Of a stretch of 34,048 nucleotides of DNA, positions 831 to 20,034 are shown in pieces. The stretch lies in sequence record SRR20825006_1186; one strand, 5' to 3'. Position numbers and translations under genes: made by a program. The notes below the pieces were generated by a model, which was not told the DNA's origin, did no database searches, and saw only the letters and a program-made list of their open reading frames with translations. Within the stretch, counting starts at the first letter, position 1; each line of letters opens with the position of its first letter.

Positions 831-2153
831 CTATCCAACACGACGCAAACCATCGACCCAGACCGTGGCAATATTGGCGCGCGAGATGGAATAAAGCAGC
901 TTTTCCAACACCAGATCACCGTCGTAACCGGGCCAAAGCCGGATCGTGCCCTTGGCGGCTTTCGGGTCAATGGCGATGGCATCGAACTTCATTCCCGGCT
1001 CGAAACTCCCGACCGGAAGGCCAAGCGCCTTGGCCCCGCCGCGTGTCGCCAGATAAAAAGCGGTGCGAAAATCAATCCGCGCCGCGCCCCGGCCCCGCGC
1101 CTCAGGCGCAACAGCGGCATCCACACCGCTTTCCAACATTCTAGATGCCGCAATCGCCATCCGGGCCGTTTCCCAGATCGAGGCCACAGGCCCGCCGGAC
1201 ATATCCGAACCAAGCCCGACATTGAGACCGCGTTCCAAAGCGGCGCGCAGCGGAAAGACCGCCCCTGAGAAATAGGCATTGGACAGCGGGCAATGCGCCA
1301 CCCCCGCCTGATGGGCGATCATCAGGTCCATATCAGAGCCGGAGAGATGCGTGCCGTGGGCAAAGACCGAATGCGGCACCATCAGGCCAAAGTCCGCCAG
1401 CGCCTCCGCATCAGAACGCCCCGTTCGGACACGGACATAGTCATGTTCCCAATCACTTTCCGACACATGGCTTTGCACCCGCGTGCCGGTTTTTTGCGCC
1501 AAAGCGCCAAGGCCCGAAAGACACGCATCGGTACAAGACGGCACAAAGCGCGGCGTCACCACCGGATGTACCATCCCGTCATTGCCGGGCATGGCGTTGA
1601 TATACTCAATCACCGCGCGCGTGCCCGCAATCGCGTCTTCGGCAGAGGCATCGCGATACTCAGGCGGGCATTGGTCCGGGTCATCCATCACCACTTTGCC
1701 AATCAACGCACGCTGCCCCTTGGCCAGACAAAGATCGGCCAAAAGCGTGGTAGCCGGGACATGAACGGTGGCAAAATGCAGCGCGGTGGTGGTGCCAAGC
1801 GCCAACATGTCGTCGATCAACGCACTGTAGACCGCTTTGGCAAAATCGAGATCGGAAAACCGCGCCTCAAGCGGGAAAGTGTAGGTTTGCAGCCAATCCT
1901 CAAGCGGCACGTCAAGCGCGGTGCCAAGTTGCGCGTATTGCGGCGCGTGCACATGCAGATCCACGAAACCCGGCAAGATCAACCAGCCCGTTGGCAGGAT
2001 CGTCGCCCCGGTCGGATCGCCGTCCGGCTCAAAACCAACAATGCGCCCCGAGTCATCCAATGTCAGAACGGCATCTTCAAAGGCTTCAACCACACCCAGA
2101 GTTGGCGCATGAAATCCCGAGACCAAAATCTTTTGTCCGCGCAGATCCTTCAT
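831..2153 (-). CDS. guaD: Guanine deaminase (amidohydrolase superfamily)
   Basis: Motifs PGFVDLHVHAPQY, VTPRFVPSCT, QSHVSE, HCPLSN, GLGSDMSGG. Start placed at ATG 2153 (MKDLRGQK), which overlaps the upstream stop as ATGA. Confidence 0.85.
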   Translation of the reverse strand: MKDLRGQKILVSGFHAPTLGVVEAFEDAVLTLDDSGRIVGFEPDGDPTGATILPTGWLILPGFVDLHVHAPQYAQLGTALDVPLEDWLQTYTFPLEARFSDLDFAKAVYSALIDDMLALGTTTALHFATVHVPATTLLADLCLAKGQRALIGKVVMDDPDQCPPEYRDASAEDAIAGTRAVIEYINAMPGNDGMVHPVVTPRFVPSCTDACLSGLGALAQKTGTRVQSHVSESDWEHDYVRVRTGRSDAEALADFGLMVPHSVFAHGTHLSGSDMDLMIAHQAGVAHCPLSNAYFSGAVFPLRAALERGLNVGLGSDMSGGPVASIWETARMAIAASRMLESGVDAAVAPEARGRGAARIDFRTAFYLATRGGAKALGLPVGSFEPGMKFDAIAIDPKAAKGTIRLWPGYDGDLVLEKLLYSISRANIATVWVDGLRRVG

Positions 2154-3037
2154 GCCGCAGTGACGGTAAATGTATCCGCCGGCCCCAAAGTTGTACCGTA
2201 AACACAGCCCTTTTCTTTCAACCAACGGCGATACGCGATGGAGGAGGCATCGCCGCGGGTCGGCGTTTCGAACCGCGGTTCCAACGGCAAAAGACGCGGG
2301 CGTTGGTTTTCCAAAATGATCCGGTCTTGCAGAAAGATCACCTGTTGAAACCCGATCAGATCGGCATCCGTGCTGGTCTCATCCAGCAAGAACATCACCG
2401 GATGTGCGCGACACAGGCCCGGCTCCATCGGTTGCACAAACAGGCAAATCACATCCCAACGCGTCTCGGACATCGGGCAGGTTTTATACAGCAACACGGT
2501 AAACGGCGTGGTGACACGGTAGATATAATCGGTCCGGATCGCGCCACTTGCGGATTTGGCGGCCTGTGGTTGGGTAAAAACGCAATCGGTGGCCCAGACC
2601 TCATCCACATCGCGGCGGATTTCGCATTTGTATTTCTCAACCTCGGGGTGCGCCTCAGAGCCAAGAATATCGGTATGCACAAAAGGGAAATGCGCCATAT
2701 CAAGGAAGTTTTCGATCACACGCGGGGCCGAGGACTTCACCTTCACAGCCCCACATGGAACGTAGCGGCGATCCGGTTCATCCGCCTCGGGGATATGCGG
2801 CACATCGGTGTTGGGCGCGCCCAAGGTGACCCAAAGATAGCCGTATCGTAGTCGCACGGGCAATTCCCTATCACCACAGCGCGCCACCAAAGCCTCGCCG
2901 CCCGTGATGAAAATATCCTGACCCAAAAGCCGGGTCGTCAGCCCAGAGGGCGGGATTTCGACCAGATTTTGAATGCAATACCATTGATCGAGCGTGGCGG
3001 GGTCCAGCACTGCCGACCCATCTGTCTCTGTCGTCAT
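2150..3037 (-). CDS. Rieske-oxygenase catalytic subunit lacking the Rieske [2Fe-2S] motif (NdmC-like, VanA_C fold), copy 1
   Basis: Mononuclear Fe motif ENFLDMAHFPFVH and distal IFLQDRIILENQ, plus C-terminal AYRRWL. No CxH...CxxH in the shortened N-terminus. AAGGA RBS upstream of ATG 3037. Confidence 0.85.
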   Translation of the reverse strand: MTTETDGSAVLDPATLDQWYCIQNLVEIPPSGLTTRLLGQDIFITGGEALVARCGDRELPVRLRYGYLWVTLGAPNTDVPHIPEADEPDRRYVPCGAVKVKSSAPRVIENFLDMAHFPFVHTDILGSEAHPEVEKYKCEIRRDVDEVWATDCVFTQPQAAKSASGAIRTDYIYRVTTPFTVLLYKTCPMSETRWDVICLFVQPMEPGLCRAHPVMFLLDETSTDADLIGFQQVIFLQDRIILENQRPRLLPLEPRFETPTRGDASSIAYRRWLKEKGCVYGTTLGPADTFTVTAA

Positions 3038-3061
3038 TTTATGCATCCTTCAAAATCTGGT

Positions 3062-4471
3062 TCAGGCGTAAATACGATCCATCGTTGCCGCATGATCGGC
3101 CAAAGCGGCCGCCAGGTCCAGACGCGTGAACGCACCTTGGTCAATGATCTGCACCCCATTGATGAAGGAATGATCAACCTCAAACGGACCGCACATCACA
3201 AGGGCAGCCAAAGGATCGCGCTGGGTGCCCGCAAGGCCAAGCCGCGTGCGTTTTATGGCAATGAGATCGGCGGATTTGCCGGGGGCCAGTTGCCCAATGT
3301 CGTCGCGCCCCAAAAGTTTCGCTCCCGCCCGCGTCGCCATCCAAAGCGCCTCGCGCGCCGACAGTGCCCCCGGTGTGCCGCCAAATCCGCCCCGCCCACC
3401 GGGGACCTCGGACAGGTAGCGGTCCGGCGCGACCCGTTGCAAATACTGCGCCATGCGCGCCTCCATGAACATGTTGGAGGTGTCGTTTGAGGCCGACCCG
3501 TCGACGCCCAAACCGACCGTCACGCCGGCGTCCAACATCTCGCGCGCCCGCATGATACCAAGCCCGCAGCGCATATGGGCAGAGGGACAAAACGTGGCCC
3601 CAGTGCCGGTCTCGGCAAAGGTTTTGATCTCGGCATCGTTGAGGAAAATCGCATGGGCAAACCACACATCAGGGCCAAGCCAGTCGCAGCTTTCGGCATA
3701 GGCGACCGAACGCATGCCATAGGTGGCGATGCAATATTCCTCTTCGCTCAGCACTTCGGCGATATGCGAATGCAGCCGCACACCGGGATGCATCCGTGCC
3801 AAAGCCGCCGCGTCTTTCATCAAGCCTTGGGTGACGGAAAAGGCCGAACAGGGCGCCAAAACAATCCGCGTCATCGCGTGATCTGACATGTCATGATAGC
3901 GGTGGATCAAGCGCTCGGCATCCCTCAGGATCGCCTCTTCCTCCTCCACGCAACTGTCGGGCGGCAACCCGCCTTTGCTTTCGCCCCGGCTCATCGCGCC
4001 CCGCGCCGCATGAAAGCGCAGACCCATCTCCTGGGCCACCCGAATGGGCGTGTCCAAGGTGCAATCATTGGGCATGATATATTGGTGGTCCGAGGAGGTG
4101 GTACAGCCGCTCATGATCAGTTCCGCCATGGCCATGCGCGAGGCGGTTTCCATCGCCCGATCATCAAGCTTTGCCCAAATCGGATAGAGGGTTTTGAGCC
4201 AGACGAAGAGTTCGTCATCCTGAACCATCACCCGCGTGAGGTTTTGATAGAAATGGTGATGGGTGTTGATCCTCCCCGGCATCACCACATGATCGGACAG
4301 GTCCAACACCCGATCCGCCACCACATCGACAAACTCCGACATCGGCCCGACAGCCGCAATCACATTGTCGCGGATCAATACGCCCCCATCGGTCATTTCG
4401 CGACCGACCTCGCCATAACCGTCATCAAAGGTGGCCAGATAGGAGATGTTTTTAAGGAAAGTTGTGCTCAT
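3062..4471 (-). CDS. Amidohydrolase, 8-oxoguanine deaminase/AtzB-like subfamily
   Basis: Motifs INTHHHFYQNLTR, SGCTTSSDH, GGLPPD, APCSAFSV, HSHIAE, GVDGSASND. Start ATG 4471 (MSTTFLKNI) overlaps the permease stop as ATGA. Confidence 0.85.
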   Translation of the reverse strand: MSTTFLKNISYLATFDDGYGEVGREMTDGGVLIRDNVIAAVGPMSEFVDVVADRVLDLSDHVVMPGRINTHHHFYQNLTRVMVQDDELFVWLKTLYPIWAKLDDRAMETASRMAMAELIMSGCTTSSDHQYIMPNDCTLDTPIRVAQEMGLRFHAARGAMSRGESKGGLPPDSCVEEEEAILRDAERLIHRYHDMSDHAMTRIVLAPCSAFSVTQGLMKDAAALARMHPGVRLHSHIAEVLSEEEYCIATYGMRSVAYAESCDWLGPDVWFAHAIFLNDAEIKTFAETGTGATFCPSAHMRCGLGIMRAREMLDAGVTVGLGVDGSASNDTSNMFMEARMAQYLQRVAPDRYLSEVPGGRGGFGGTPGALSAREALWMATRAGAKLLGRDDIGQLAPGKSADLIAIKRTRLGLAGTQRDPLAALVMCGPFEVDHSFINGVQIIDQGAFTRLDLAAALADHAATMDRIYA

Positions 4472-5403
4472 CTTTGATCTCGAAAATAGGGGACTGTGAG
4501 ACTGTCGGGTGCGGCCATCAGGCGACGCATCCGTTGCCATGCCAGAACAGGCACGATCATCAATGCCATGGTGCCCAGATAGGGCAACATCGAGAGGATC
4601 GAGGCGGCAATCGGCCAATTATGCGCCTGACCGACAAAGCCCAAGGCGGTGACAAAACCGAATAACAGCCCGGCCAAGACCGCGTTGATCGGGCGAAATC
4701 CGGCGAAAATCACCAAGGCGACCGCGATCCAACCGCGCCCTGCGACGACGCCCTCGGACCAGCTTGGGACAAAGACCAAGGTCAGATAGCCCCCGGCCCC
4801 TGCCGCCAAAGCCGACCCCAATGACACATACCAAAACCGCATTTTCATCACTGAAATCCCAGCGGCATCTGCCGCCGCCGGATTTTCGCCCACGGCGCGC
4901 ATGTTGAGACCATGACGGGTGTGAAAGATCAAAATATGCAGCGCCACCGGCAGCACGAGGAAGATCAGATAGACCAAAAGCGAATGGCTAAAGAACGCGC
5001 GGCCAAAAAACGGCAGATCGGACAGGATTGGGATATGGATGTCCTGAAAGGTCGCGGACACAGGCGAGCCAGAGATCGGTTTGCCCAAGGTGGCGGCCAA
5101 ACCCATCCCCATGTAGGTGAGTGCCAAGCCGCACAGCACCTGATTGGCGCGGATGATCACCGTGGCCACGGCAAAAATCATCCCCGCGATCAACCCCACG
5201 CCCATGGCGACCAAAAAGCCCAGCCATGGGTGCGGCGTGATCACCACCGTGGCCACCGCTGACATCGCGCCCAAGGCGATCAGCCCCTCGACGCCAAGGT
5301 TCACCACACCCACACGTTCGGCCAAAACCTCGCCCAAAGCCGCCAGCGCCAGAACGCCTCCGGCCAAAAAGGCGGTTTGGATCAGACCTGCAAGAATATC
5401 CAT
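4468..5403 (-). CDS. ABC transporter permease (nucleoside/purine, BPD_transp_2 type)
   Basis: Highly hydrophobic; motifs LGEVLAERVGVVNLGVEG, MRAVGENPAAADAAGI, AGRGWIAVALVIF. Confidence 0.92.
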   Translation of the reverse strand: MDILAGLIQTAFLAGGVLALAALGEVLAERVGVVNLGVEGLIALGAMSAVATVVITPHPWLGFLVAMGVGLIAGMIFAVATVIIRANQVLCGLALTYMGMGLAATLGKPISGSPVSATFQDIHIPILSDLPFFGRAFFSHSLLVYLIFLVLPVALHILIFHTRHGLNMRAVGENPAAADAAGISVMKMRFWYVSLGSALAAGAGGYLTLVFVPSWSEGVVAGRGWIAVALVIFAGFRPINAVLAGLLFGFVTALGFVGQAHNWPIAASILSMLPYLGTMALMIVPVLAWQRMRRLMAAPDSLTVPYFRDQR

Positions 5404-5404
5404 G

Positions 5405-6472
5405 TCAGCGCGCTCCCTTGGGTGTGACTTTTCCAGTCGTTGGGATCAATTTGTAGCGCGCGACCTCGTCAGCGATGGCGGCGTAAAACAGGATCAGCCC
5501 GGTGATGGCCAAAACCGTATGGGTTGTAAGCCCTTGAGATTGCAAAACGATCCCACCATTCAGGATCACCGCCATAAAAAATGCTGTGGCAATCACCCCC
5601 AAAGGGGCGGCGCGGGCCAGAACCGCGACCATGATGCCCAGATAGCCATAATTGTTGGAAATCCCGCCCTGAAGCCGCCCGACGGTGCCTGCAACCTCCA
5701 TCATGCCGCCAAGCCCGGCGATGGCGCCCGACATCAACATGACGAGGATCAGATGACGCTGTACCGGCATCCCGGCATAGGCTGCGGCACCCGGATTGGC
5801 GCCGCCGATGCGCACCTCATAGCCCCAACGCGTATAGGCAAACATCACGGCCAAACCAACCGCCAACATCAGCGCCACGGGCAAGCCCCAATGCACGATC
5901 CCCCAGACATAGGGCACCGAGACGGACAGTCGCGCGGTGGTCGCCAAAGCCATGCCCGACGGATCGAGCCAAGGGCCGGTGGCAACCCAATAGACCAACA
6001 AAAGCGCGACGAAATTCATCAACAGCGTGGTGATCAATTCGGACACATCGGCATAGGCTTTGGCCAAGGTCGGGATCAAAATCCAAAGCGCGCCACCGGC
6101 CATGCCCGCGAGCGCCATCAGCGGCACTAAGAGCCACGCGGGACCCGGCACGAACAGCGCCACGCCAGTTGCGGCAAACGCCCCAAGGTTGAATTGCCCC
6201 TCCGCCCCAATGTTCCACGCACCGATGCGCAGGCCAACCGCAACCGCGAGACCACAATAGAGCAGCGGCGAAAACAACAGGCCCAAATCCTCAAGCCCGA
6301 AACGCGACCCGAAGGTCGATGACAACACCTTGCCGCCCAGCGCGATTGGGTCTTTGCCGGACAGCGCCAACACGGCGGCGGCGGTCAAAAGCGCCAAGAT
6401 CACCGACAGCACCCGCGCGGAGAACAACACGCTTGGGGCCGCGACCGGCATACGTTGCAAACGGTAGCTCAT
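5405..6472 (-). CDS. ABC transporter permease (nucleoside/purine, BPD_transp_2 type)
   Basis: Motifs WNIGAEGQ, ELITTLLMNF, WGYEVRIGGANPGAAAYAG, GYLGIMVAVLAR. Confidence 0.92.
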   Translation of the reverse strand: MSYRLQRMPVAAPSVLFSARVLSVILALLTAAAVLALSGKDPIALGGKVLSSTFGSRFGLEDLGLLFSPLLYCGLAVAVGLRIGAWNIGAEGQFNLGAFAATGVALFVPGPAWLLVPLMALAGMAGGALWILIPTLAKAYADVSELITTLLMNFVALLLVYWVATGPWLDPSGMALATTARLSVSVPYVWGIVHWGLPVALMLAVGLAVMFAYTRWGYEVRIGGANPGAAAYAGMPVQRHLILVMLMSGAIAGLGGMMEVAGTVGRLQGGISNNYGYLGIMVAVLARAAPLGVIATAFFMAVILNGGIVLQSQGLTTHTVLAITGLILFYAAIADEVARYKLIPTTGKVTPKGAR

Positions 6473-8040
6473 GCGGCCTGTCCCTGTTGTCTTTGTCCGC
6501 CCATCATCAGGCCGATTTGTTCGATATCCGCGCCTTGGGCCGGAACCACGCCCATAATCTCGCCATGAAACATCACGGCAATCCGGTCGGCGAGGTTCAG
6601 CACTTCTTCCAACTCCTCGGAGATCAGGACAACGGCGACGCCACTGTCGCGCATCTCAACAAAATAGCGCATCATCGTGTTGATCGCGCCAACGTCCAGC
6701 CCGCGCGACGGATAGGCCGCGATCAGCACCTTATCGGCAATGCGCATTTCGCGCCGCGCGACCAGACGTTGTTGGTTGCCGCCCGACAGGTTGCGTGCAG
6801 GCATGGCGAAATCCGGCACCATCACCCCGGCAATCCTGGCAATCTCGCGCGCCAAAGCCAGCGCTCGACGCGGCGCATACCACGGCCCGTTCGAGAGTGG
6901 CGGCAGGGCGTATTCGCGCAGCACCGCATTGTCGGTGATCGACAGGGTTGGGGCCATCCCGGCATAAAGTCGATCTTCGGGAATATGACCCACGCCCTTT
7001 TGCGCAAAGACCCGCGCGCCAGCGCGTCCGATATCTTCGCCATCCAGTGTCACCGTGCCCTTGGAGGGCGCGACAAGACCACTCAGCACATAGGTCAATT
7101 CACGCTGACCATTGCCCGCAACCCCAGCGATGCCAAGGATTTCTCCGGCGCGCACAGAGAGCGAGACGTTTTTCAACACAGTGCCATACTCAGATTTCAG
7201 CGTGACGCCTTCAAGTGTTACCATCGGCGCGCCAATCTTGCGCGCGCCGCCATCGCCACGCATGTCGTTGAGCACGATTTCGCGCCCGACCATCAATTGT
7301 GCCAAGGATGTCTCCGAACAGTCCGAGGTCCATTCGGTCGCGATCTTGCGGCCCGCGCGCAAAATGCTCACCCGGTTGGAAATCTCCATCACCTCGTCGA
7401 GTTTATGCGAGATGAAAATCACCGCGTTTCCCCGCGCCACAAAGGCCCTGAGCGCCGCAAACAGGTCGCGTGCCTCCGAGGGGGTCAAAACGGCGGTGGG
7501 CTCATCAAGGATCAGAACTTTGGCGTCACGCGCCAACACCCGCAGGATTTCGACCCGCTGCTGTTCGCCCGTTGACAGATCGGCCACAATCGCCCCCGGC
7601 TTGACCGCAAGGCCAAGCGTGTCGGCTAAATTCATGGTCCGCTCTTCCAGCGCCTTGCGCGAAATCCGCGCCGGGGTGGCATCCCAACCCAAGTGGATGT
7701 TTTCGGCCACGGTGAAGGCTTTGACCAATTTGAAATGCTGATGCACCATGCCAATCCCGGCGGCTATGGCATCAATTGGCGAGGCAAAGCGGCGACTTTC
7801 CCCGTCCATGATGATCTCGCCTGCATCCATGTGATAGATGCCGGTCAATACATTCATCAGCGTCGATTTCCCGGCGCCGTTTTCGCCCAAAAGCGCGTGA
7901 ATCTCGCCGGGATAGACCGCAAGATCCACGTCCTCATTGGCGATCACGCCGGGGAAATATTTCGACACGCCTTTGAGGGCGACCAAAGGCGGCGTCCCGG
8001 GCGCAAGCCCGAGACGCTGTTGGATCGAATCCTCGTGCAT
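6469..8040 (-). CDS. ABC transporter ATP-binding protein with two NBDs (CUT2/nucleoside type)
   Basis: Walker A GENGAGKST, signature LSTGEQQ, Walker B LILDEPT; second domain LSGGNQQ and PSRGLDVG. Start is ATG 8040 or GTG 8043. Confidence 0.93.
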   Translation of the reverse strand: MHEDSIQQRLGLAPGTPPLVALKGVSKYFPGVIANEDVDLAVYPGEIHALLGENGAGKSTLMNVLTGIYHMDAGEIIMDGESRRFASPIDAIAAGIGMVHQHFKLVKAFTVAENIHLGWDATPARISRKALEERTMNLADTLGLAVKPGAIVADLSTGEQQRVEILRVLARDAKVLILDEPTAVLTPSEARDLFAALRAFVARGNAVIFISHKLDEVMEISNRVSILRAGRKIATEWTSDCSETSLAQLMVGREIVLNDMRGDGGARKIGAPMVTLEGVTLKSEYGTVLKNVSLSVRAGEILGIAGVAGNGQRELTYVLSGLVAPSKGTVTLDGEDIGRAGARVFAQKGVGHIPEDRLYAGMAPTLSITDNAVLREYALPPLSNGPWYAPRRALALAREIARIAGVMVPDFAMPARNLSGGNQQRLVARREMRIADKVLIAAYPSRGLDVGAINTMMRYFVEMRDSGVAVVLISEELEEVLNLADRIAVMFHGEIMGVVPAQGADIEQIGLMMGGQRQQGQAA

Positions 8041-8043
8041 CAC

Positions 8044-9168: not shown

Positions 9169-9354
9169 CGAAGAGGTCCTCTTGGCTGTTTGAACGCTTT
9201 TGACATGTCCCATCCGGCCTTGGCCGGGGACGCGCTATGAAAGGTGCGCGGCGCTTCGCCCTCTGCGGGGAGATAGCGCCAGGACCGCCTTGCGCCCGGA
9301 CGATCCGTCGCCAAGGTCACGAATGTGGGGCGGCCACGTCGCATGTGCAGGACC

Positions 9355-9426
9355 ACGTTTCCAGAGTGCTGTGACCGTGAATAGCCGTAAAATTTCGATA
9401 CAGATGTTGCGTTTAGAACAACACTT
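9355..9426 (-). promoter_or_regulatory. Putative LysR-activated promoter of the transporter operon (TGTT-N11-AACA box at 9405-9423)
   Basis: Dyad TGTT-N11-AACA fits the LysR T-N11-A rule. The 72-nt segment aligns without gaps to 11997-12068 (39/72 identical by hand count). Confidence 0.7.
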
Positions 9427-9529
9427 GACGGTCCAGATTTTCCACGCCTAACTGCCGCGAACACCTCGGAAAAAATCGCCGTTTTTCCTATAAAAAAGGG
9501 GTTTTCTCGAATGATGAAAGCACAGAGAC

Positions 9530-9793
9530 ATGCAGATTGACCACGTGACATTCACCTTTACGGGACAGATTCCACGCGAGAGTTTTGCCAAGTTTGCGCA
9601 ACACCGTGCCTCAAGATTGTCCATCACCCTCACAACTGTGATGCAAAATGATGCAGTTGCGAAATTGCAGGTGATTGGTCAGCGCGATTTGGTGGATGCG
9701 TTTGAAATGGCGCTCAGCCTCGGGCCACAGGATTGCATCGTCCACAAGGTCACACGACAGGCAGACAACCCCGCCAAAGGAGAAGAGACATGA
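9530..9793 (+). CDS. Small acylphosphatase-fold protein, catalytic motif degenerate
   Basis: 87 aa with the acylphosphatase pattern (G.....F..F....A..L.I...; V.G....V..F...L..GP....V..V), but GQIPRESFAK replaces the usual GxVQGVGFR. Stop overlaps the Rieske start (ATGA at 9790). Confidence 0.65.
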   Translation: MQIDHVTFTFTGQIPRESFAKFAQHRASRLSITLTTVMQNDAVAKLQVIGQRDLVDAFEMALSLGPQDCIVHKVTRQADNPAKGEET

Positions 9794-10449
9794 GTGAAAC
9801 CGGATGGGTGCCCATCGCCCTGTCACGCTTTATTGCCCCCGGCACATCGGCCGGCACGGCGGTGCATGGCGCGGAAATCGTGGTCTGGCGCGACACCGGC
9901 GGCAAAGCCCACGCGTGGGAGGACCGCTGTCCGCATCGCGGCATGAAAATGAGCTTTGGCTTTGTGCGTGGCGATCACATCGCCTGTCTTTATCACGGCT
10001 GGGAATATGACGAGACCGGCACCTGTCGCTACATCCCGGCACACCCGGATTTGGAAGTGCCACCGTCAATCTGCGTCACGCGCTATGCGGTGACGGAGGC
10101 GGGTGGCATGATCTGGACCGCGCTGCCTTTGGGCGACATGCCAGAAGTGGAACCAAACGCGCCTGAGATGGACGGGCTGCGCAGCCTCTACATCGACGCG
10201 CCTCTGGATGCGGTCTTGGCCGGGGTGAAAACCGTGGCCTCGGAGGTCTCGCAGACCGGCGCGCTGATCACCGCCACGCTGGGAGAGACCCCGCTGACCC
10301 TCGGCTTACAAACCGTCGACGCCGACCATTCGGCGTTGCACATCACCCTGCCCTCGGACACACCGACCGCGACCCGCCTCAGCCTGCTCGACCAATTCGC
10401 CACCCTGCGCCGCAACGTCGAATCCCCCCTCAAAGAGGCCGCTCAATGA
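9790..10449 (+). CDS. Stand-alone Rieske [2Fe-2S] protein with a C-terminal degenerate domain (resembles the N-terminal half of NdmD)
   Basis: Rieske motifs DRCPHRG and CLYHGWEY. The ~110 aa C-terminal extension has no 2-His-1-carboxylate motif and no FNR/ferredoxin motifs. Start ATG 9790. Confidence 0.85.
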   Translation: MSETGWVPIALSRFIAPGTSAGTAVHGAEIVVWRDTGGKAHAWEDRCPHRGMKMSFGFVRGDHIACLYHGWEYDETGTCRYIPAHPDLEVPPSICVTRYAVTEAGGMIWTALPLGDMPEVEPNAPEMDGLRSLYIDAPLDAVLAGVKTVASEVSQTGALITATLGETPLTLGLQTVDADHSALHITLPSDTPTATRLSLLDQFATLRRNVESPLKEAAQ

Positions 10450-11075
10450 CCCAGCTTGTCTTGCACAATTATGATCTGGATGACGCCTGCTATCGCGTGC
10501 GGCTTGTGGCCTCCTGTTGCGACCTTCCGGTGGAATTGCGCAATGTCGACATGTTCCCCGGTATGGAACAGGTTTCCCCGCCCTATCTGAAGCTGAACCC
10601 TTTGGGGCGCTTGCCGATCTTGGAAACGGCGGATGTGACACTGCGCCATACCGGAGCGATTTTACTCTATCTGGCGAGGCTGGACCCGCAAAAGCGGCTT
10701 TTGCCGACAGAGGCCTCCGCACTGGCCCAGATGATGGATTGGCTGTTTTTCGCGGAACATGACCTATCGGTCTCCACCGAGGCCCGCGCCATTTCGATCA
10801 TGGATCTGCCCGGTGACGGGCCCCAAACCATCGCCCAAACCCGCGCTTTGCTGCGGATTATGGAGGATCACATGAGCGCGCAAGAGATCAAAGGTCTGAG
10901 TTTCTTCGCCGGAGAAGAGATTACGCTGGCCGATATTGCGCTGTTCCCCGCCTTTGCGCTGAGCCGCGATTGCAATATTGACCATGACGCCTTTCCCGCC
11001 CTGCGGCTTTGGGCGCGACGGGTGCGTGCCACGCCGGGCTTTGTTGTCATGCCCGGCATCCCGGATTACCACTGA
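10446..11075 (+). CDS. Glutathione S-transferase-like protein (NdmE-like)
   Basis: Motifs CYRVRL, LNPLGRLPIL, AILLYLA, ITLADIALFP and C-terminal PGFVVMPGI. Translationally coupled to the Rieske gene. Confidence 0.85.
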   Translation: MTQLVLHNYDLDDACYRVRLVASCCDLPVELRNVDMFPGMEQVSPPYLKLNPLGRLPILETADVTLRHTGAILLYLARLDPQKRLLPTEASALAQMMDWLFFAEHDLSVSTEARAISIMDLPGDGPQTIAQTRALLRIMEDHMSAQEIKGLSFFAGEEITLADIALFPAFALSRDCNIDHDAFPALRLWARRVRATPGFVVMPGIPDYH

Positions 11076-11998
11076 TGGACCTGCATCGGCTTGGTCTCGT
11101 GTCCTCGCGCGTCCACCACTTTATGTTGGTGGCGCGGCTGGGGTCGATCCGGCAGGCGGCGCTGTCGCTCAATGTCGCGCCCTCTTCGATCTCGCGCACC
11201 ATCAAACAACTCGAAGAAGACCTCGACACCCCCCTGTTTGAACGCACCAAACAACGGCTGAAACTGACCTCAGCGGGCGAACTTTTAGCCTATCACATCG
11301 GGCAATCCACCGGCGAAATGAACCGGGCGCTGACCGAGATCAACGACCTGCACGGGCTGCGCCGGGGCACCGTGACCCTGGCGGTGATCGAAAGTGCCGC
11401 ACGCGGGCTTTTGCCCGAAGTTCTGGCCGGGTTTTGGGTGCGCCATCCCGAAATCAGCGTCGATGTCCGCGTCACCGGCTCGCAAGAGGCCGTCGATTTG
11501 GTCAATCAGGGCGAGGCGGATTTGGCCTTGGCCTTTGACGTGCGGGTGCCGCGCAATGCACGGCGTTTGGCCTCCGTGGCTTTGCCTTTGGGCGTATTGG
11601 TGCCACCCGGCAGTGCCCTGACCAAAGAAAACCGCCCCGTAAAAGCCTATGAATTGGCCGGTGAGCGAGTGATCCTCTCGGACGCCTCTTTGACGCTCGG
11701 CAGTTCGGTCGAACAGATGTTTTCTGGCTCTTTCGTCGAGTTTTCCCGCCGCGCCCGGACGAATTCCATCGGCTTGATGATTGATCTGGCCATTCGCGGG
11801 CTGGGCACGATCCTTCAGACCCGGCTTGGTGTGCAAAATGAAATCAGTCGTGGCCATCTTGTCTTCATCCCGCTTGCGGATGCGGGTCTTGGTCTGCGCC
11901 GCCTGTCGCTGATTGCCCGCCCCAAAGGCGAAGCCTCTGAGGCCGCCTTGGCGCTCTCTGCCTCGCTCACTTCCACCATGGAGGGTCTCAAATCCTAA
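11075..11998 (+). CDS. LysR-family transcriptional regulator
   Basis: HTH GSIRQAALSLNVAPSSISRTIKQLEEDLDTPLFER and LTSAGE, followed by a LysR substrate-binding domain. ATG 11075 overlaps the GST stop (TGATG). Confidence 0.95.
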   Translation: MDLHRLGLVSSRVHHFMLVARLGSIRQAALSLNVAPSSISRTIKQLEEDLDTPLFERTKQRLKLTSAGELLAYHIGQSTGEMNRALTEINDLHGLRRGTVTLAVIESAARGLLPEVLAGFWVRHPEISVDVRVTGSQEAVDLVNQGEADLALAFDVRVPRNARRLASVALPLGVLVPPGSALTKENRPVKAYELAGERVILSDASLTLGSSVEQMFSGSFVEFSRRARTNSIGLMIDLAIRGLGTILQTRLGVQNEISRGHLVFIPLADAGLGLRRLSLIARPKGEASEAALALSASLTSTMEGLKS

Positions 11999-12068
11999 GT
12001 GTTGCGCCAAAGCGAACATCTCGTTGAGAAATCATCGTCTTTTCGGAACACAGTCACTCTGACAGGTT
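11997..12068 (+). promoter_or_regulatory. Putative LysR-activated promoter of the ThDP-GMC-XDH operon (TGTT-N11-AACA box at 12000-12018)
   Basis: Same box and downstream conserved blocks (AACATCT, CGnCTnTTC, CACTCTG) at the same spacing as 9355-9426. Confidence 0.7.
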
Positions 12069-12099
12069 GATTTTGTAGCGTGAGATTTGGAGGTTCGAT

Positions 12100-12600
12100 A
12101 TGCAGCAAAGCGCCGTAGATGCGGTGATCCGAGGGCTCAAACGGGCGGGTGTGAGTATCGTATGTTACCTGCCGGATTCGCTGTTCAAAGAACTCTATCC
12201 GGCGCTCGATGCCGACCCGGACATTCGCACCATCCAAGTCACCAACGAAGGCGAGGGGGCGGCCATTTGCGGCGGTGTGTTCCTATCGGGCAAACGCGCG
12301 GCTTTGGTGATGGAAAACTCCGGTCTGCGCGCCTCGGTCGAACCGCTTGCGCGGATGGGCTTGGGCGCGGGCATCCCGGTTGTGATGCTGATGAGCTATC
12401 GCGGCGATATGGGCGAAAACAATTGGTGGGCGGTGCCACATGGCGTGACCATGGAACCGGTGCTGCAAGCCCTGCGCATCCCCTATGTGGTCGAGCGCGA
12501 AGAGGAGCGGATCGAACAAGCGATTTTTGACGCATATGAGCTGGCCTATTCGTCTTATTACCACACCGCCGTGGCGCTTTCGGGGAGTATCGTGCGATGA
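12100..12600 (+). CDS. ThDP-dependent decarboxylase alpha (PYR) subunit, sulfopyruvate/phosphonopyruvate decarboxylase-like
   Basis: Motifs YLPDS, VTNEGEGAAICGG (catalytic Glu), LVMENSG, MLMSYRGDMGE; GGAGG RBS. Confidence 0.8.
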   Translation: MQQSAVDAVIRGLKRAGVSIVCYLPDSLFKELYPALDADPDIRTIQVTNEGEGAAICGGVFLSGKRAALVMENSGLRASVEPLARMGLGAGIPVVMLMSYRGDMGENNWWAVPHGVTMEPVLQALRIPYVVEREEERIEQAIFDAYELAYSSYYHTAVALSGSIVR

Positions 12601-13205
12601 AACGCTTTGAGTGTATGACAAAATTGGCCGCCCGCCTCTCCGACGAATTGGTGATCCTCTCATTGGGCGCCTCTGTTGACGAATGGTACAACGCCGCGCC
12701 GCACATGCGCGCCGCCTCGCTGTTTCAACAACAATTGGGCTGTGTCACGCCGCAGGCGTTTGGACTGGCGGCGGGCCTGCCGGAGCGCCAAATCATCTCG
12801 CTCGACACCGATGGCGGGCTGTTGTTCAACCTCGGCATACTGGCCACTTTGGGCAATGAAAGACCGAAAAACCTGTTTGTCGTGGTCTGGGACAATGAAA
12901 TGTACCAATCCATCGGCGGGCCCAAAACCCACACCGCCTCGGGCACCGTCGATCTGGCCGCCATTGCGCAGGGCGCCGGGGTGACACACGCCTACACCGC
13001 CCGCACTTTGGACGAGTTCGACGCCCATTGCGAAGCGGGTTTGGCCAGTGACGACCCCTATATTGTCGTCGCCAAGGTCGCGGGCACCGTTCAGCCCGAG
13101 ATCAAGCGCAAACACTCAGATGGGCGCGAGGACAAGTACATCTTTGTGCGCCATGTCGAAGCCACCGAAGGGATCACCATCATGGGCCCTTCTGAACATA
13201 ACTGA
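12597..13205 (+). CDS. ThDP-dependent decarboxylase beta (PP) subunit, ComE-like
   Basis: ThDP/Mg motif variant DTDGGLLFNLG...VVVWDNEMYQSIGG; ATGA overlap with the alpha subunit. Confidence 0.8.
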   Translation: MKRFECMTKLAARLSDELVILSLGASVDEWYNAAPHMRAASLFQQQLGCVTPQAFGLAAGLPERQIISLDTDGGLLFNLGILATLGNERPKNLFVVVWDNEMYQSIGGPKTHTASGTVDLAAIAQGAGVTHAYTARTLDEFDAHCEAGLASDDPYIVVAKVAGTVQPEIKRKHSDGREDKYIFVRHVEATEGITIMGPSEHN

Positions 13206-13219
13206 TCCACGGGACTGAC

Positions 13220-14758
13220 ATGAAAACCGCCTTTGATTACATCGTGATCGGCTCTGGATCGGGCGGCTCTGCCGTGGCGCGCCGACTGCATGATGCGGGG
13301 GCGGATGTGGCGGTGATCGAGGCGGGAAAATCGACCCTTGGCGTGGCTGAGATCGAAGACCCGAGTGCTTGGTTTGCTCTGCAATCCGGCGCATGGGATT
13401 GGGGGCATCATTACACCCCCACCGCGCATGTTTTGAATCGCACTATCCCGATCCCACGCGGCAAAGGCTTGGGTGGCTCGTCGGCCACCAATGCGATGAT
13501 GTGGTATCGCGGCGGACCCGCCGATTATGCCCGGTGGGACGCTGTGGCGCCGGGATGGTCGTGGGAGGACTGCCTGCCGAGCTTTCAAGCCTGCGAGACA
13601 TGGCAGAGCGGTGCGAGCGCCTTGCGCGGCAGCGATGGCCCGCTCAAGATCACCCGCCCGGACCCGGATCATCCCCTGACCCAAGCCATGCTCAAAGGTG
13701 GGGCCGATATGGGCTTGCCGATGGTGGATGACCCGAACGGGCCGGAGCCCTTCGGCGTCAGCCTTGCCAATTTCAACATCTCGCCCGAGGGTCTGCGTTG
13801 GACCTCGGCGATGGGGTATCTTGCTCCAATCATGGCGTCCGAACGTTTGACGATCCTCTGCGAGACCCGCGCTTTGGCATTGGCGTTTTCCGGTGATCGC
13901 GTCCGTGGTGTCCGTGTGTTCAAAGACGGCGCGGAGCATCTTTTGACCGCACGGTCGGGCGTGATCCTTGCCGCTGGCGCTTTGGAAACCCCGCGGTTGT
14001 TGATGCTCTCTGGCATTGGAGATGAGGCGGAGCTGGTCCGGCTTGGCCTCAAAACCCGCCTCCACGCCCCCGAAATCGGTCGTAATCTTCAGGATCATCC
14101 GCTGCTGCGCGCCCTCAATTTCCGCGCCTCATCGCCGCTTGGGCCGATGAAAGGCAACGGCGGCGGCACGCTGTCGATTTGGAAATCCGCGCCCGAGTTG
14201 GACCAAGCCGATCTCTTGGCTTTCCCCATTCAAACCCGCTCTGCCGTGCCGGCGCTTTGGGATCATTACGATTTCGACGGTGATGTTTTTGCCATCGGAC
14301 TGGGCGTCATGCGCTCCTATTCCAAAGGCTGGATCACGCTGACCGGGACCTCCCCGGATGACCCACTTGATATTCAGCCAAACCTCTTGTCGGACCCGCG
14401 CGATCTGAAGGCGCTCGTGTCCGGGGTGGAGTTCCTGTTGGACATGGTGCTCACCCCCGGCTTTTCACACCTCTTCGCGGATTTCGTCGCCCCGGATCGC
14501 AAGGTCTCGGGCGGTGATACCGTCACTTTCGTGCGCCGCGCCTGTTCGACCTTTTTCCACTGTTGTGGCACCGCCCAAATGGGCGCGCACACCGACGCCC
14601 CCGTGTCCCCTCGGTTGGGCGTCAAGGGCGTTCGCGGCCTCTGGGTCGCGGATGCCTCCGTCATTCCCGACATCCCCGCCTGTCACACCCACGCCCCTGT
14701 CACCATGATCGGAGAACGGGCGGCGCAGTTTATATTGGAGGACGCATGTCTGACCTGA
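13220..14758 (+). CDS. GMC-family FAD oxidoreductase (alcohol oxidase/dehydrogenase type)
   Basis: Motifs VIGSGSGG, RGKGLGGSSATNAM, GRNLQDHP, FHCCGTAQMG, VADASVIP..P..HTHAPVTMIGER. Confidence 0.9.
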   Translation: MKTAFDYIVIGSGSGGSAVARRLHDAGADVAVIEAGKSTLGVAEIEDPSAWFALQSGAWDWGHHYTPTAHVLNRTIPIPRGKGLGGSSATNAMMWYRGGPADYARWDAVAPGWSWEDCLPSFQACETWQSGASALRGSDGPLKITRPDPDHPLTQAMLKGGADMGLPMVDDPNGPEPFGVSLANFNISPEGLRWTSAMGYLAPIMASERLTILCETRALALAFSGDRVRGVRVFKDGAEHLLTARSGVILAAGALETPRLLMLSGIGDEAELVRLGLKTRLHAPEIGRNLQDHPLLRALNFRASSPLGPMKGNGGGTLSIWKSAPELDQADLLAFPIQTRSAVPALWDHYDFDGDVFAIGLGVMRSYSKGWITLTGTSPDDPLDIQPNLLSDPRDLKALVSGVEFLLDMVLTPGFSHLFADFVAPDRKVSGGDTVTFVRRACSTFFHCCGTAQMGAHTDAPVSPRLGVKGVRGLWVADASVIPDIPACHTHAPVTMIGERAAQFILEDACLT

Positions 14759-16116
14759 TCCTTAGTGCCGAAGCCCTTGTCACCATGGACAAAGACCTGA
14801 CCGTGATCCCCCATGGTGCGGTCTTGGTGCACGGTGATACGATCGTGGCCACAGGCCCCGCGCGCGACCTGATTGCGGCGTATCCGGAGGCCACGGTAAA
14901 GGACATGGGCCGGGCGGTATTGATGCCCGGTCTGATCAATGCCCATGCCCATTCCGGCTTTCTGCGTGGCACCGCCGAACACCTGCCGGTTTGGGATTGG
15001 CTGACCCAACATATCAACCCGATGCACCGCGTGCTTTTGCCCGAAGAGGCGGAGGCCGCCAGCTATCTGTGCTATGCCGAAAGCCTCTTGGCGGGCACCA
15101 CCACGGTGGTGGATATGTGGCGTTATATGGAGGGCTCGGCCCGTGCCGCCGAGATTCTTGGCAACCGGATTGTCGCCGTGCCTTACGTTGGCGAGCACCC
15201 CGATTACGACTATTTCGACACGCTCGATATGAATGAGGCGTTGATTGAGCGTTGGCATGGCAAGGCCGAGGGCCGGGTCACTGTCTGGGTCGGGTTGGAG
15301 CATCTGTTTTATGCCGATGAGGCCGGGCAACAGCGCGCCATCGACATGGCGAAAAGGCACAACACCGGCTTTCACACCCATTGTTCCGAAGCTGAGATTG
15401 AGTTGGCCGAGTTTCACACCCGCTACGGCAAAAAGCCGATGGAGGTCTTTCACGATCTCGGGTTCTTTGAGACGCCGAGGGCGATGTTTGCCCATGCGGT
15501 GTGGTTTTCCCCCGAAGAGATCGACCTGATCTCAAATTACAACGTCTCGGTCGCCCATAACCCGGTGTCGAACATGAAACTGGCCTCTGGCATCGCGCCC
15601 ATTTCCGACATGTTGGCGGCGGGCATACCCGTGGGCATCGGCACGGATGGTGAGAAAGAGAACAACAATTTTGACATGTTCGAAGAGATGAAACTCACCT
15701 CCCTCAAGGGCAAATTGCGCCACCGCGACGCCGCCGCAATGGACAGTTGGGAGGTGTTGCGCATGGCGACCTCTTTGGGGGCCGAGGCCCTGGGGCTGGG
15801 CAATGTCACGGGGTCATTGGAACCGGGCAAAAAAGCCGACATCATCGCCCTGCGCGGCGACACGCCGCGGATGACGCCATTTCACGCCGATGGGCGCTGG
15901 TTCAACATTCACCACAACCTGGTCCATGCCGTACGCGGCTCTGACGTCAAAATGACCATGGTCAATGGCCAGATATGCGTCGAGGACGGCAAGCTGGTGA
16001 GCGGGGATGTGACCGAGATCATCGACCGGCTGAACCGCCTCACACCGGGGCATTTCACCCGCCGCCAGCTCTGGCTTGACGCCAATGGCGGCGGCACGAC
16101 GCAATGGACCGATTGA
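14746..16116 (+). CDS. Amidohydrolase, MTA/SAH-deaminase-like (TrzA/AtzA/MtaD subgroup)
   Basis: Motifs PGLINAHAHS, GTTTVVDM, HTHCSE, AHAVW, HNPVSNMKLASG, GTDGEKENNNFDMFEEMK. GGAGG RBS before ATG 14746. Confidence 0.85.
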   Translation: MSDLILSAEALVTMDKDLTVIPHGAVLVHGDTIVATGPARDLIAAYPEATVKDMGRAVLMPGLINAHAHSGFLRGTAEHLPVWDWLTQHINPMHRVLLPEEAEAASYLCYAESLLAGTTTVVDMWRYMEGSARAAEILGNRIVAVPYVGEHPDYDYFDTLDMNEALIERWHGKAEGRVTVWVGLEHLFYADEAGQQRAIDMAKRHNTGFHTHCSEAEIELAEFHTRYGKKPMEVFHDLGFFETPRAMFAHAVWFSPEEIDLISNYNVSVAHNPVSNMKLASGIAPISDMLAAGIPVGIGTDGEKENNNFDMFEEMKLTSLKGKLRHRDAAAMDSWEVLRMATSLGAEALGLGNVTGSLEPGKKADIIALRGDTPRMTPFHADGRWFNIHHNLVHAVRGSDVKMTMVNGQICVEDGKLVSGDVTEIIDRLNRLTPGHFTRRQLWLDANGGGTTQWTD

Positions 16117-16127
16117 GGAGCATCCAG

Positions 16128-16979
16128 ATGTCACAGACCTCACAAGGCACCAAAGATTCCGTCGCCCTCAACCAATGGTATGCGGTCGCCACGCTCACCG
16201 ATTTGGACCGGATGGAGGAGACAAAGCTCTTGGGTCATCCGATCACTATCGGTCCGGGGAAATCCGTGATGCATAATGGTAAACCCCTGCCCATTCGGGA
16301 GAAATTCGAGTGTCTTTGGACCACGCTCGGCGCACCAAATACTGAGATTTTCGAAATCGAAGAGCGGTTTGAGCCCGAGCGGCGGGTTGTCACCTGTGGC
16401 TGGGTGACCATGCGGGCCTCTGGCCTGCGTGTGGTCGAAAATTTCCTCGACATGGCGCATTTTCCCTTTGTCCACACCGACATTTTGGGCTCTGAACCGC
16501 ACGCCGAGGTGCCCGTTTACAAATCCGAAATCCGCCGCAATGTGGACGAGGTCTGGGCCACCAATTGCACCTTTTTTCAACCGCAAATGACCACAGCCCG
16601 CCCGGAGGGCGAATTCGCCCAACTGACCTACCGGGTGCCCAGTCCCTTTGTCGTCATGCTCTACCGCGAAGCACCAGATCAACCCGCCCACCGCGATGCC
16701 ATTGCCCTGTTCATCCATCCAATCGAAGAGGGGCTATGTCGGGCGCAACCGGTGATGTATCTGCTCGACCAGACCTCCAGCCATACCCAGCTTTTGCGCT
16801 TTGAACAGGTGATTTTCCTGCAAGACCGGATCATCGTCGAAAACCAACGCCCGCTGTTGTTGCCACTTGAGGCGCGCAGCGAAATCCCGACCCGCGCCGA
16901 CAGTTCCTCGGTCGCCTATCGCCGCTGGTTGAAGGAAAAGGGGATTACCTTTGGCACGACCACGCCGGAGGCCGCATGA
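16128..16979 (+). CDS. Rieske-oxygenase catalytic subunit lacking the Rieske motif (NdmC-like), copy 2
   Basis: ENFLDMAHFPFVHTDILGSE is identical to copy 1; also IFLQDRIIVENQ and AYRRWLKEKG. No CxH...CxxH. GAGGAG RBS before ATG 16128. Confidence 0.85.
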   Translation: MSQTSQGTKDSVALNQWYAVATLTDLDRMEETKLLGHPITIGPGKSVMHNGKPLPIREKFECLWTTLGAPNTEIFEIEERFEPERRVVTCGWVTMRASGLRVVENFLDMAHFPFVHTDILGSEPHAEVPVYKSEIRRNVDEVWATNCTFFQPQMTTARPEGEFAQLTYRVPSPFVVMLYREAPDQPAHRDAIALFIHPIEEGLCRAQPVMYLLDQTSSHTQLLRFEQVIFLQDRIIVENQRPLLLPLEARSEIPTRADSSSVAYRRWLKEKGITFGTTTPEAA

Positions 16980-19900: not shown

Positions 19901-20034
19901 TTGGGCATTGGTGCGGTGACGCCCGCGATTGCCAATGCGGTATTTGATGCGATTGGACGCTGGCCGGTGGTGACGCCGTTTGCGCCAGAGAGCCTTTTGG
20001 ATGTGATCGCATCCGTTGAGGCGGAGGCCCAAAC

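Follow-up and report, generated by a model that had tools for sequence, protein, structure and literature searches.

A candidate unfused NdmCDE-like oxygenase with two catalytic subunits and one Rieske/GST gene pair in a conserved purine-type island

Genes of a split oxygenase in a catabolic island

Sequence record SRR20825006_1186 is a stretch of DNA of 34,048 nucleotides, which we analyzed as a whole and refer to as the window. Its left two thirds (positions 831 to 22001) hold a tightly packed catabolic island composed of two divergent gene strings. We describe here a putative split Rieske oxygenase encoded in this island by four genes, namely two for catalytic subunits that have no Rieske cluster of their own, one for a free Rieske protein and one for a protein similar to glutathione S-transferases (GST). 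These genes are the following:

2150..3037, minus strand: catalytic subunit 1 (type 1), a Rieske-less NdmC-like non-haem iron oxygenase with VanA_C as its only domain, a deletion of the cluster loops and invariant ligands
9790..10449, plus strand: free Rieske [2Fe-2S] protein of 219 residues with a vestigial remnant of a catalytic domain; Pfam Rieske domain, ribosome-binding site (RBS) before the ATG at 9790
10446..11075, plus strand: GST-like (NdmE-like) protein with GST_N and GST_C domains; ATGA overlap with the Rieske gene
16128..16979, plus strand: catalytic subunit 2 (type 2), a Rieske-less NdmC-like oxygenase with VanA_C only; preceded by an RBS, its stop codon overlapping the start of a gene similar to xanthine dehydrogenase (XDH) in an ATGA

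Complementary losses in the catalytic and Rieske proteins

The only Pfam domain in the open reading frame (ORF) of subunit 1 (2150-3046, minus strand) is VanA_C (E 4e-20), and the same holds for the ORF of subunit 2 (16104-16979, plus strand; E 1.4e-16). We aligned the two proteins, which share 54% identity, with three full-length relatives, two of them NdmA/B-like proteins from a caffeine plasmid and one from plasmid pKF715A. A segment of approximately 45-55 residues, corresponding exactly to the C-x-H-R...C-P-Y-H-G stretch, is gone from both window subunits and from five other NdmC-like proteins, and the W-Y/H, LLG and (Y)G.LW..L segments that flank the deletion are retained. The iron motif E112-N-F-L-D116-M-A-H119-F-P-F-V-H124, together with D241, is invariant in 26 type-1 and 21 type-2 rows. 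Judging from these residues, both subunits would possess a 2-His-1-carboxylate site without a Rieske cluster, as does the catalytic subunit of an NdmCDE-type enzyme. This architecture is shared by the relatives of the two proteins: the best 120 of 3365 and the best 120 of 3262, with identities of 63-98%, all consist of the catalytic domain alone. The AlphaFold2 model of subunit 1 (predicted local distance difference test, pLDDT, 80.5) aligns over its whole length in Foldseek with GxtA/SxtT (E 1e-17) and then with NdmA/NdmB.

The free Rieske protein shows the opposite pattern. Rieske is the only Pfam domain of its ORF (9733-10449), covering residues 25-109 of the long ORF (E 4.3e-23), and all 25 aligned sequences of the free Rieske family share the ligands C47, H49, C66 and H69; the best 120 relatives are 200-237 residues long. 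In the AlphaFold2 model (pLDDT 92.4), the Rieske domain is followed by a small second domain made of one strand, one helix, a four-strand sheet and a long C-terminal helix. The His/Asp iron motif is absent from this second domain. Foldseek matches the protein over its whole length to complete Rieske oxygenase alpha subunits (GxtA/SxtT, E about 1e-15, TMq 0.67-0.72). By sequence as well as by fold, the best matches of the catalytic and Rieske proteins alike are SxtT/GxtA and NdmA/B. Thus, a remnant of the Rieske domain persists in subunit 1, and a ligand-less remnant of the catalytic domain in the Rieske protein; the two represent complementary losses in descendants of one kind of protein.

The ORF at 10446-11075 contains both the N-terminal and the C-terminal GST domain. 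At position 12 of the family, the window protein and its eight nearest cluster representatives (9 of 26 rows) have Asp and 16 of the 26 have Ser, and the residues aligned to Glu-Ser of PDB 3m8n are variable rather than conserved. These positions hint that glutathione binding may be lost and that the role of the protein may be structural.

These results bear out the initial annotation, which had described two subunits with iron ligands and surviving flanks around a lost CxH...CxxH cluster, as well as a Rieske protein with a degenerate, ligand-less second domain and a gene coupled to a GST-like one. The start codons that it had assigned (3037, 16128 and 9790) are each preceded by an RBS, and the resulting subunit lengths (295 and 283 residues) fit those of the nearest database proteins.

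A modelled complex of subunit 1 with the Rieske and GST-like proteins

Multimer modelling had been proposed as a check of the initial annotation, and we ran it for subunit 1. We predicted the three chains (Rieske, GST-like protein and subunit 1) with an alignment for each chain and with subunit 1 as the scored partner. The model scored 0.93, compared to 0.60 for the best of three controls, in which the Rieske protein was swapped for an unrelated protein, and to 0.00 for both controls in which the partner was replaced. The calibration mark for such scores was reached by 58 of 80 solved complexes and by 2 of 110 mismatched pairs; it counts only as a rough guide here, since the calibration set was unlike a job with three chains and their own alignments. 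Contacts agreed between runs at 86% or more, and the pLDDT of the partner was at least 87.

The confident contacts lie between residues 45-53 and 67-70 of the Rieske protein, which form the loops of C47, H49, C66 and H69, and residues 117-126 and 242-250 of subunit 1, around D116, H119, H124 and D241. This is the contact geometry seen between neighbouring subunits of Rieske oxygenases. The GST-like protein contacts residues 97-104 of subunit 1 through residues 117-120 and others, and the control at 0.60 suggests that this predicted contact alone already places the partner. The model supports, without showing it, the binding of subunit 1 to the pair.

Subunits 1 and 2 are identical at 34 of the 49 modelled interface positions, compared to 118 of the 249 positions elsewhere.

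Co-occurrence and gene counts

Three profiles were run against 151 genomes, one per genus of the family of the window. Of these genomes, 11 contain NdmC-like genes (E up to 1e-40), and the same 11 contain full-length genes for the free Rieske protein (E up to 4.8e-50). Two more genomes match the Rieske profile only via the Rieske half of ordinary oxygenases of 357-371 residues. GST matches (E up to 1e-25) occur in 78 genomes; all 14 that score at least 239 bits are confined to the 11 positive genomes, where each neighbours a Rieske or NdmC-like match, and the next-best GST (183 bits) comes from a genome with no NdmC-like gene. NdmC-like, full-length free Rieske and high-scoring GST genes are therefore present all together or not at all. 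A class-wide sample, in which eight candidates were scored per genome, returned 7 positive genomes out of 301 and is too sparse to add to this picture.

The genes are arranged in more than one way. At least one copy of a compact operon, in which the catalytic gene lies between the Rieske and GST genes, is found in 8 of the 11 positive genomes, and this form is shared with plasmid pRL10 of Rhizobium johnstonii. In the other three (G001, G360 and G415), the Rieske and GST genes are contiguous and the catalytic gene or genes lie elsewhere. In one genome of the family, G406, a single contig (C1) carries both a fused form, with an NdmC-like gene, a 578-residue Rieske-containing ORF and a GST, and a free compact form (approximately 977-980 kb and 2622-2629 kb); the same genome has a third, weak NdmC-like gene with its own GST.

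The nearest genome, G001, contains 80% of the sampled words of the window and encodes two NdmC-like proteins, one such Rieske protein and one high-scoring GST, all on one contig. We also counted these genes in 16 genomes with the island, hand-picked for taxonomic spread, and hence not a random sample, from those behind the related loci described below. The ratio of catalytic to free Rieske to high-scoring GST genes is 2:1:1 in 11 of them, 2:2:2 in two, 1:1:1 in two and 3:2:2 in one, which has the island and a compact operon. In 11 of the 16, the type-1 gene, the pair and the type-2 gene lie on one contig in the order of the window, with the two catalytic genes divergent and 13-17 kb apart. Kaistia has the Rieske/GST pair next to its type-1 operon, with the type-2 string on a separate contig.

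With two intact Rieske-less oxygenases and a single such Rieske donor per genome, sharing is the simplest explanation. The claim that one Rieske/GST module serves two catalytic subunits is therefore supported by the 2:1:1 counts in G001 and in 11 of the 16 hand-picked genomes and, for subunit 1, by the model; for subunit 2 we infer it. That the two subunits belong to different operons is correct in part: subunit 1 lies in the divergent string, whereas subunit 2 is encoded on the same strand as the pair, 5 kb downstream, in one conserved string.

Relation to NdmCDE and other known systems

Sections of a 2015 review (PMC4408171) describe NdmC as lacking the Rieske cluster, NdmD as carrying an extra one and NdmE as a GST-like protein thought to be structural, and term NdmCDE unique among Rieske oxygenases. 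The same sections cite Summers et al. 2013 for ndmCDE-like clusters of unassigned function in 18 organisms, mainly Sinorhizobium and Mesorhizobium.

As stand-ins for NdmC, NdmD and NdmE, which form the 7-methylxanthine N7-demethylase of Pseudomonas putida CBB5, we used syntenic homologues from plasmid records, retrieved by aligning subunit 1 to these records with tblastn (272 records matched). Plasmid p1 of Paraburkholderia caffeinilytica CF1 carries two NdmA/B-like genes, a GntR gene, an NdmC-like gene, a PDR/VanB reductase gene, a GST gene, frmA and fghA; P. putida pKF715A carries an NdmC-like gene, a gene for a 585-residue Rieske and reductase protein and a GST gene in a purine context. In BLASTP comparisons, subunit 1 is 43% identical to the NdmC-like protein of the caffeine plasmid (E 9e-84). 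The free Rieske protein is 35% identical (E 1e-27) to residues 25-165, that is, to the N-terminus, of the 585-residue protein of pKF715A, and the GST-like protein 34% identical to two NdmE-like GSTs of NdmCDE-like clusters (E 1e-38 and 3e-35). The similarity to the three Ndm types that had been proposed for the locus is hence significant. As in NdmCDE, a separate polypeptide homologous to the N-terminus of NdmD carries the Rieske cluster, with invariant ligands, and a GST-like third protein is encoded alongside, with ATGA coupling and strict co-occurrence.

Two features of NdmCDE are missing. The Rieske protein of the window is a free protein of 219 residues, and no fusion to a FMN/NADH/[2Fe-2S] reductase of the NdmD type occurs in it or in its best 120 relatives (200-237 residues). 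Moreover, the catalytic genes are not orthologous to NdmC: those beside a fused NdmD, including that of the caffeine plasmid, branch outside the type-1 and type-2 clades (87/74). On account of both differences, we regard the window system as one that would work like NdmCDE and not as a member. It further differs from NdmCDE in having two paralogous catalytic subunits per Rieske/GST pair and neither a nearby reductase nor frmA and fghA.

Other clusters share parts of this arrangement. Plasmid pSymA of Sinorhizobium meliloti has two NdmC-like genes before one Rieske and reductase gene and one GST gene, beside a BMP importer. Both there and in pKF715A, however, the Rieske domain is fused to the reductase and the catalytic genes are adjacent, whereas in the window the Rieske protein is free and the catalytic genes are 5-7 kb off, one on each side. 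The compact operon of pRL10 from R. johnstonii 3841 (Rieske, NdmC-like and GST genes) shares with the window a free Rieske protein, the lack of a reductase and an amidohydrolase and a BMP importer alongside. In compact operons, the Rieske and GST genes enclose a single catalytic gene, in contrast to the contiguous pair and two distant catalytic genes of the window.

The alpha3 Rieske monooxygenases (VanA, KshA, NdmA and SxtT) have the fold of both window proteins (Foldseek E 1e-15 to 1e-17), and the way in which the Rieske loops meet the iron motif in the model would mimic their electron path between subunits. They hold both centres in one chain, whereas each window chain has retained a single centre next to a remnant of the other domain. 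Three-component oxygenases such as carbazole and biphenyl dioxygenase employ a small soluble Rieske ferredoxin of approximately 105 residues that has no second domain, and their oxygenase keeps its own cluster. The window Rieske protein, which has weak PDB matches to such ferredoxins, resembles them as a small soluble protein feeding electrons to an oxygenase, and differs from them in standing in for the cluster of the oxygenase itself.

No paper on a free-Rieske NdmCDE-like enzyme or on this island was found in the literature that we searched. The initial annotation had considered the system undescribed, and this holds for the free-Rieske form in the searchable literature; ndmCDE-like clusters as such had already been listed (Summers et al. 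2013, as cited in PMC4408171), and pSymA already has two NdmC-like genes. New from the window are the conservation of the 2:1:1 arrangement, the age of both catalytic clades and the complete string of conserved genes.

Phylogeny and spread of the island

We reconstructed a maximum-likelihood tree of the catalytic proteins and placed the midpoint root with three full-length outgroup proteins, two NdmA/B-like and one from pKF715A. All Rieske-less proteins form one clade (97/97) with respect to these three. Within it, type 1 (97/93) and type 2 (99/99) are sister clades (93/88), each of which includes Rhodobacterales and Rhizobiales. The compact gene of pRL10 falls outside the two types, and those of the caffeine plasmid, pKF715A and S. 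meliloti, which accompany a fused NdmD, are further out (87/74). By this tree, the duplication of the catalytic gene is old and both copies were retained. The orthologues of subunit 2 share 67-82% identity in Celeribacter, Rhizobium, Mesorhizobium, Hoeflea and others.

To count related loci, we took the best 80 of at least 593 confirmed stretches, which were identified with a type-2 profile in one genome per species and are hence biased to type 2, and aligned the window proteins to them with tblastn. Both the Rieske and GST genes are found in 70 of the 80 loci. They are neighbours in 68 of these, with the type-2 gene downstream of them (median distance 6.1 kb), and lie on either side of the type-2 gene in the other two (L099 and L100). 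Six of the 10 loci without the pair are contigs that end upstream, and the flank is complete in the remaining four, three from Kaistia and one from Mesorhizobium. The other members of the string are conserved to a similar extent, with genes for the GMC oxidoreductase in 75 loci, the third amidohydrolase in 72, the alpha subunit of a thiamine pyrophosphate (TPP)-dependent enzyme in 68, the [2Fe-2S] subunit in 66, the XDH-like enzyme in 64, the LysR regulator in 61 and the aldehyde dehydrogenase (ALDH) in 54. The purine-type island of approximately 21 kb is thus conserved, and its layout is not peculiar to the window (68 of the 80 related loci).

The closest named record is that of Celeribacter baekdonensis DSM 27375 (L021), with 92% protein identity in subunit 2 and the same gene order; the window accordingly belongs to a close relative in the Rhodobacterales. 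The string also reaches Methylorubrum, Telmatospirillum, Komagataeibacter and two Rhodococcus genomes. The two Rhodococcus loci (L094 and L095) have the order Rieske, GST, TPP alpha, TPP beta, GMC, type-2 oxygenase and ALDH, which is the alphaproteobacterial one, and their oxygenase lies at the base of the type-2 clade. These loci suggest that the island was transferred between phyla.

Positions 9200-17000 are covered, in part or in full, by RNA-library contigs from two marine studies; those of X2 are mostly at least 95% identical to the window, and those of X4 and X5, at 90-95%, come from a relative. Because one of these contigs spans the divergent promoter region, DNA carry-over is possible and we did not count them as expression.

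Gene context and possible substrates

The minus-strand string runs from 9213 down to 831 and encodes a BMP importer (a substrate-binding protein, a double ATPase and two permeases), an 8-oxoguanine-deaminase-type amidohydrolase, subunit 1 and a guanine-deaminase-like amidohydrolase. The plus-strand string starts at 9790 with the Rieske and GST-like genes, followed by a LysR regulator, a split TPP-dependent enzyme, a GMC oxidoreductase, the third amidohydrolase, subunit 2, a XDH-like molybdenum enzyme with its [2Fe-2S] subunit and an ALDH. Stop and start codons overlap between Rieske and GST (ATGA), GST and LysR (TGATG), subunit 2 and the XDH-like gene (ATGA) and subunit 1 and the guanine-deaminase-like gene (ATGA). 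Besides the four oxygenase genes, the island contains:

831..2153, minus strand: guanine-deaminase-like amidohydrolase; TIGR02967 361.8 bits (cut-off 375.4), PDB guanine deaminases E 4e-68; start overlaps the stop of subunit 1 (ATGA)
3062..4471, minus strand: 8-oxoguanine-deaminase-type amidohydrolase (AtzB/8-oxoGuaD cluster); NF006055 565.3 bits (cut-off 532), PDB 7ww2 E 1e-131
4468..9213, minus strand: BMP-family ATP-binding cassette (ABC) importer with two permeases, a double ATPase and a substrate-binding protein; Pfam BPD_transp_2 twice, ABC_tran and Bmp
11075..11998, plus strand: LysR-family regulator; HTH_1 and LysR_substrate, start overlapping the GST stop (TGATG), in 61 of the 80 related loci
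12100..13205, plus strand: split TPP-dependent enzyme, alpha and beta subunits, sulfopyruvate/phosphonopyruvate-decarboxylase-like by Pfam; NCBIfam matches below cut-offs
13220..14758, plus strand: GMC flavin oxidoreductase; GMC_oxred_N and GMC_oxred_C, PDB alcohol and choline oxidases E 1e-70 to 1e-65, which point to no specific function
14746..16116, plus strand: amidohydrolase of the methylthioadenosine/S-adenosylhomocysteine (MTA/SAH)-deaminase/chlorohydrolase group; Amidohydro_1, PDB 4f0r E 9e-55
16976..20496, plus strand: XDH-like molybdenum hydroxylase (fusion of FAD and molybdenum parts) and [2Fe-2S] subunit by Pfam; PucD 690 bits (cut-off 784), PucC, PucE
20493..22001, plus strand: ALDH; Aldedh 570 bits, no NCBIfam equivalog reached

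The region to the right of the island (22077-33433) is unrelated and encodes OpgC, a family-2 glycosyltransferase and MdoG (osmoregulated periplasmic glucan), PqiA, MlaD-domain proteins and a Cache/HAMP chemoreceptor. An ORF of 602 residues opposite MdoG (25137-26945, plus strand) matches no Pfam family and probably represents an antisense frame in GC-rich sequence.

The split TPP enzyme has a median identity of 86% in its alpha subunit (68 loci) and 84% in its beta subunit (67 loci) across several orders, compared to 49-71% for the other island genes. It reaches no NCBIfam cut-off, and the PDB search returned only the beta subunit of a phosphonopyruvate decarboxylase (E 7e-13), which indicates no specific function.

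The best matches of the three amidohydrolases are guanine deaminase (just below the cut-off), 8-oxoguanine deaminase (above it) and MTA/SAH-deaminase-like proteins, and the molybdenum enzyme is PucD/C/E-like, under the PucD cut-off. In the two Rhizobiales versions that we examined (L036, 3076-4878; L060, 2824-4686), an adenine deaminase of 600-620 residues, which the window does not have, is encoded between GST and LysR. Methylated purines are our best guess for the substrates, and dealkylation itself is what we infer from the analogy with the Ndm enzymes. We know of no hydrolytic route that removes ring N-methyl groups; two position-specific N-demethylases feeding deaminases and a XDH would therefore make sense, by analogy with NdmA, NdmB and NdmC.

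We also considered the product of 3062-4471 as a candidate NdmH. A 2026 paper (PMC13054789) describes NdmH as N2,N2-dimethylguanine hydrolases among AtzB homologues, with a motif made of C, Q, N (+4) and N (-48); it does not address gene context. At the positions that correspond to this motif in the rbNdmH numbering, the window protein carries C257, S258, S261 and M209, and with only one of the four motif residues it was rejected. Its combination is C-S-S-M, compared to C-Q-N-N in NdmH and S-S-I-I in AtzB; PDB 7ww2 has the same C-S..S at the three downstream positions.

Interpretation and alternatives

Taken together, we consider it probable that the window encodes an unfused NdmCDE-like oxygenase of three parts, in which one Rieske/GST pair works with two catalytic subunits that N-dealkylate imported purines. 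The free Rieske protein (9790-10449) would supply the [2Fe-2S] cluster that the catalytic subunits have lost, and the GST-like protein (10446-11075) would hold the assembly together. Each of the paralogous subunits (2150-3037 and 16128-16979) would dock on the same pair, with the histidine loops of the Rieske protein turned towards the D-x-x-H...H...D iron site in the manner of adjacent subunits of ordinary Rieske oxygenases. A reductase encoded elsewhere would deliver electrons to the Rieske protein. The two subunits would most likely take ring N-methyl (or N-alkyl) groups off different positions of imported purine bases, and the demethylated products would feed the deaminases and the XDH-like enzyme of the island.

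Several observations weigh against this interpretation. A reductase of the PDR/FNR type is encoded neither in the window nor in any of the 80 related loci. When we searched G001 for a dedicated reductase with the Rieske and reductase protein of pKF715A, none was found; the matches to the reductase part lie beside ordinary Rieske oxygenases of 425-429 residues or in a DmmABC-type dimethylamine monooxygenase cluster. The catalytic proteins are not orthologues of NdmC, so that, judged from the tree, their reaction may differ. The genes for formaldehyde detoxification, frmA and fghA, are absent from the window, unlike in the caffeine cluster, and the conserved split TPP, GMC and ALDH enzymes fit no role in a simple methylpurine scheme. 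As for the complex, the docking model covers subunit 1 alone, its set-up was unlike the calibration, and its pass may partly stem from the resemblance of the predicted interface to solved alpha3 oxygenases. The comparison of interface positions is weak support for subunit 2, because the interface overlaps the active-site motif, which is conserved anyway. Finally, the 16-genome counts come from genomes chosen by hand.

Concerning the electrons, a borrowed reductase encoded elsewhere is the simplest view. A bolder one, which we hold to be improbable, is that the island encodes an entire, so far unrecognised pathway for some abundant purine-like nutrient that is alkylated, with the Rieske protein reduced by the XDH-like or the GMC enzyme and the Rieske/GST pair acting as a hub that switches between the two subunits. 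If this were true, the oxidation of one intermediate would directly fund the oxygenation of another.

The same split architecture might instead hydroxylate a ring carbon of purines, as does HpxD, a Rieske enzyme acting on hypoxanthine and xanthine. Guanine, for instance, could be converted to 8-oxoguanine and then to urate via the neighbouring 8-oxoguanine-deaminase-type enzyme. The position of subunit 1 between this gene, whose NF006055 match is above the cut-off, and the guanine-deaminase-like one would fit such a route, as would the missing formaldehyde-handling genes, and HpxD genes are detectable relatives (approximately 29-32% identity over 73-78% of the query). This similarity is, however, well below the 43% shared with the NdmC-like gene of the caffeine cluster, and subunit 2 is coupled to a XDH-like ring hydroxylase, so that a second hydroxylase would be redundant. 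We regard hydroxylation as unlikely.

Alternatively, the substrate could be an amino-heterocycle other than a purine, such as a pterin or another vitamin-like compound with a side chain, which the oxygenases would open or dealkylate. The conserved GMC, ALDH and split TPP genes (75, 54 and 68 of the 80 loci) suggest the oxidation of a side chain, and the 8-oxoGuaD-type protein matches PDB 2paj (E 2.6e-71), an entry named putative cytosine/guanine deaminase that we take to be isoxanthopterin deaminase. The best matches of the three amidohydrolases, the molybdenum enzyme and the extra Rhizobiales gene are nonetheless all purine enzymes, and the nearest characterised oxygenase relatives act on methylxanthines, which makes this possibility rather doubtful.

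The pair could also serve subunit 2 only, with subunit 1 relying on another electron donor or having a non-redox role. The gene order agrees with this, since the pair heads a same-strand string with the type-2 gene in 68 of the 80 type-2 loci and subunit 1 is found at the far end of the divergent transporter operon. Against it, no second Rieske protein of this type was found in G001, it was with subunit 1 that the predicted complex passed its controls, the pair of Kaistia lies beside the type-1 gene and away from type 2, and the type-1 clade keeps all iron ligands. We consider such a restriction to subunit 2 improbable. That the Rieske-less genes are decaying, functionless remnants is hardly credible: decay could look like the loss of a cofactor domain, but conservation refutes it in practice, with catalytic-domain-only relatives throughout the best 120 of each set (63-98% identity), invariant iron ligands in both types, open frames and overlapping start and stop codons.

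Significance

The reading that we favour, an unfused oxygenase in which two catalytic subunits share one Rieske/GST pair, implies that the principle of NdmCDE is widespread, with at least 593 confirmed stretches in our genome scan. It would also exist in a simpler, unfused form, in which a small separate protein bears the Rieske cluster, a GST-like protein serves as scaffold and a dedicated reductase is lacking. Across Rhodobacterales, Rhizobiales, Methylorubrum, Telmatospirillum and even Rhodococcus, a single pair has been retained alongside two catalytic subunits whose divergence is ancient. These results make testable the assembly of a split Rieske oxygenase, the role of its GST-like protein and the nutrient that is processed by a very common purine-type island of soil and marine bacteria. 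The island may thus offer a natural system in which interchangeable catalytic modules operate on a single electron-delivery hub.

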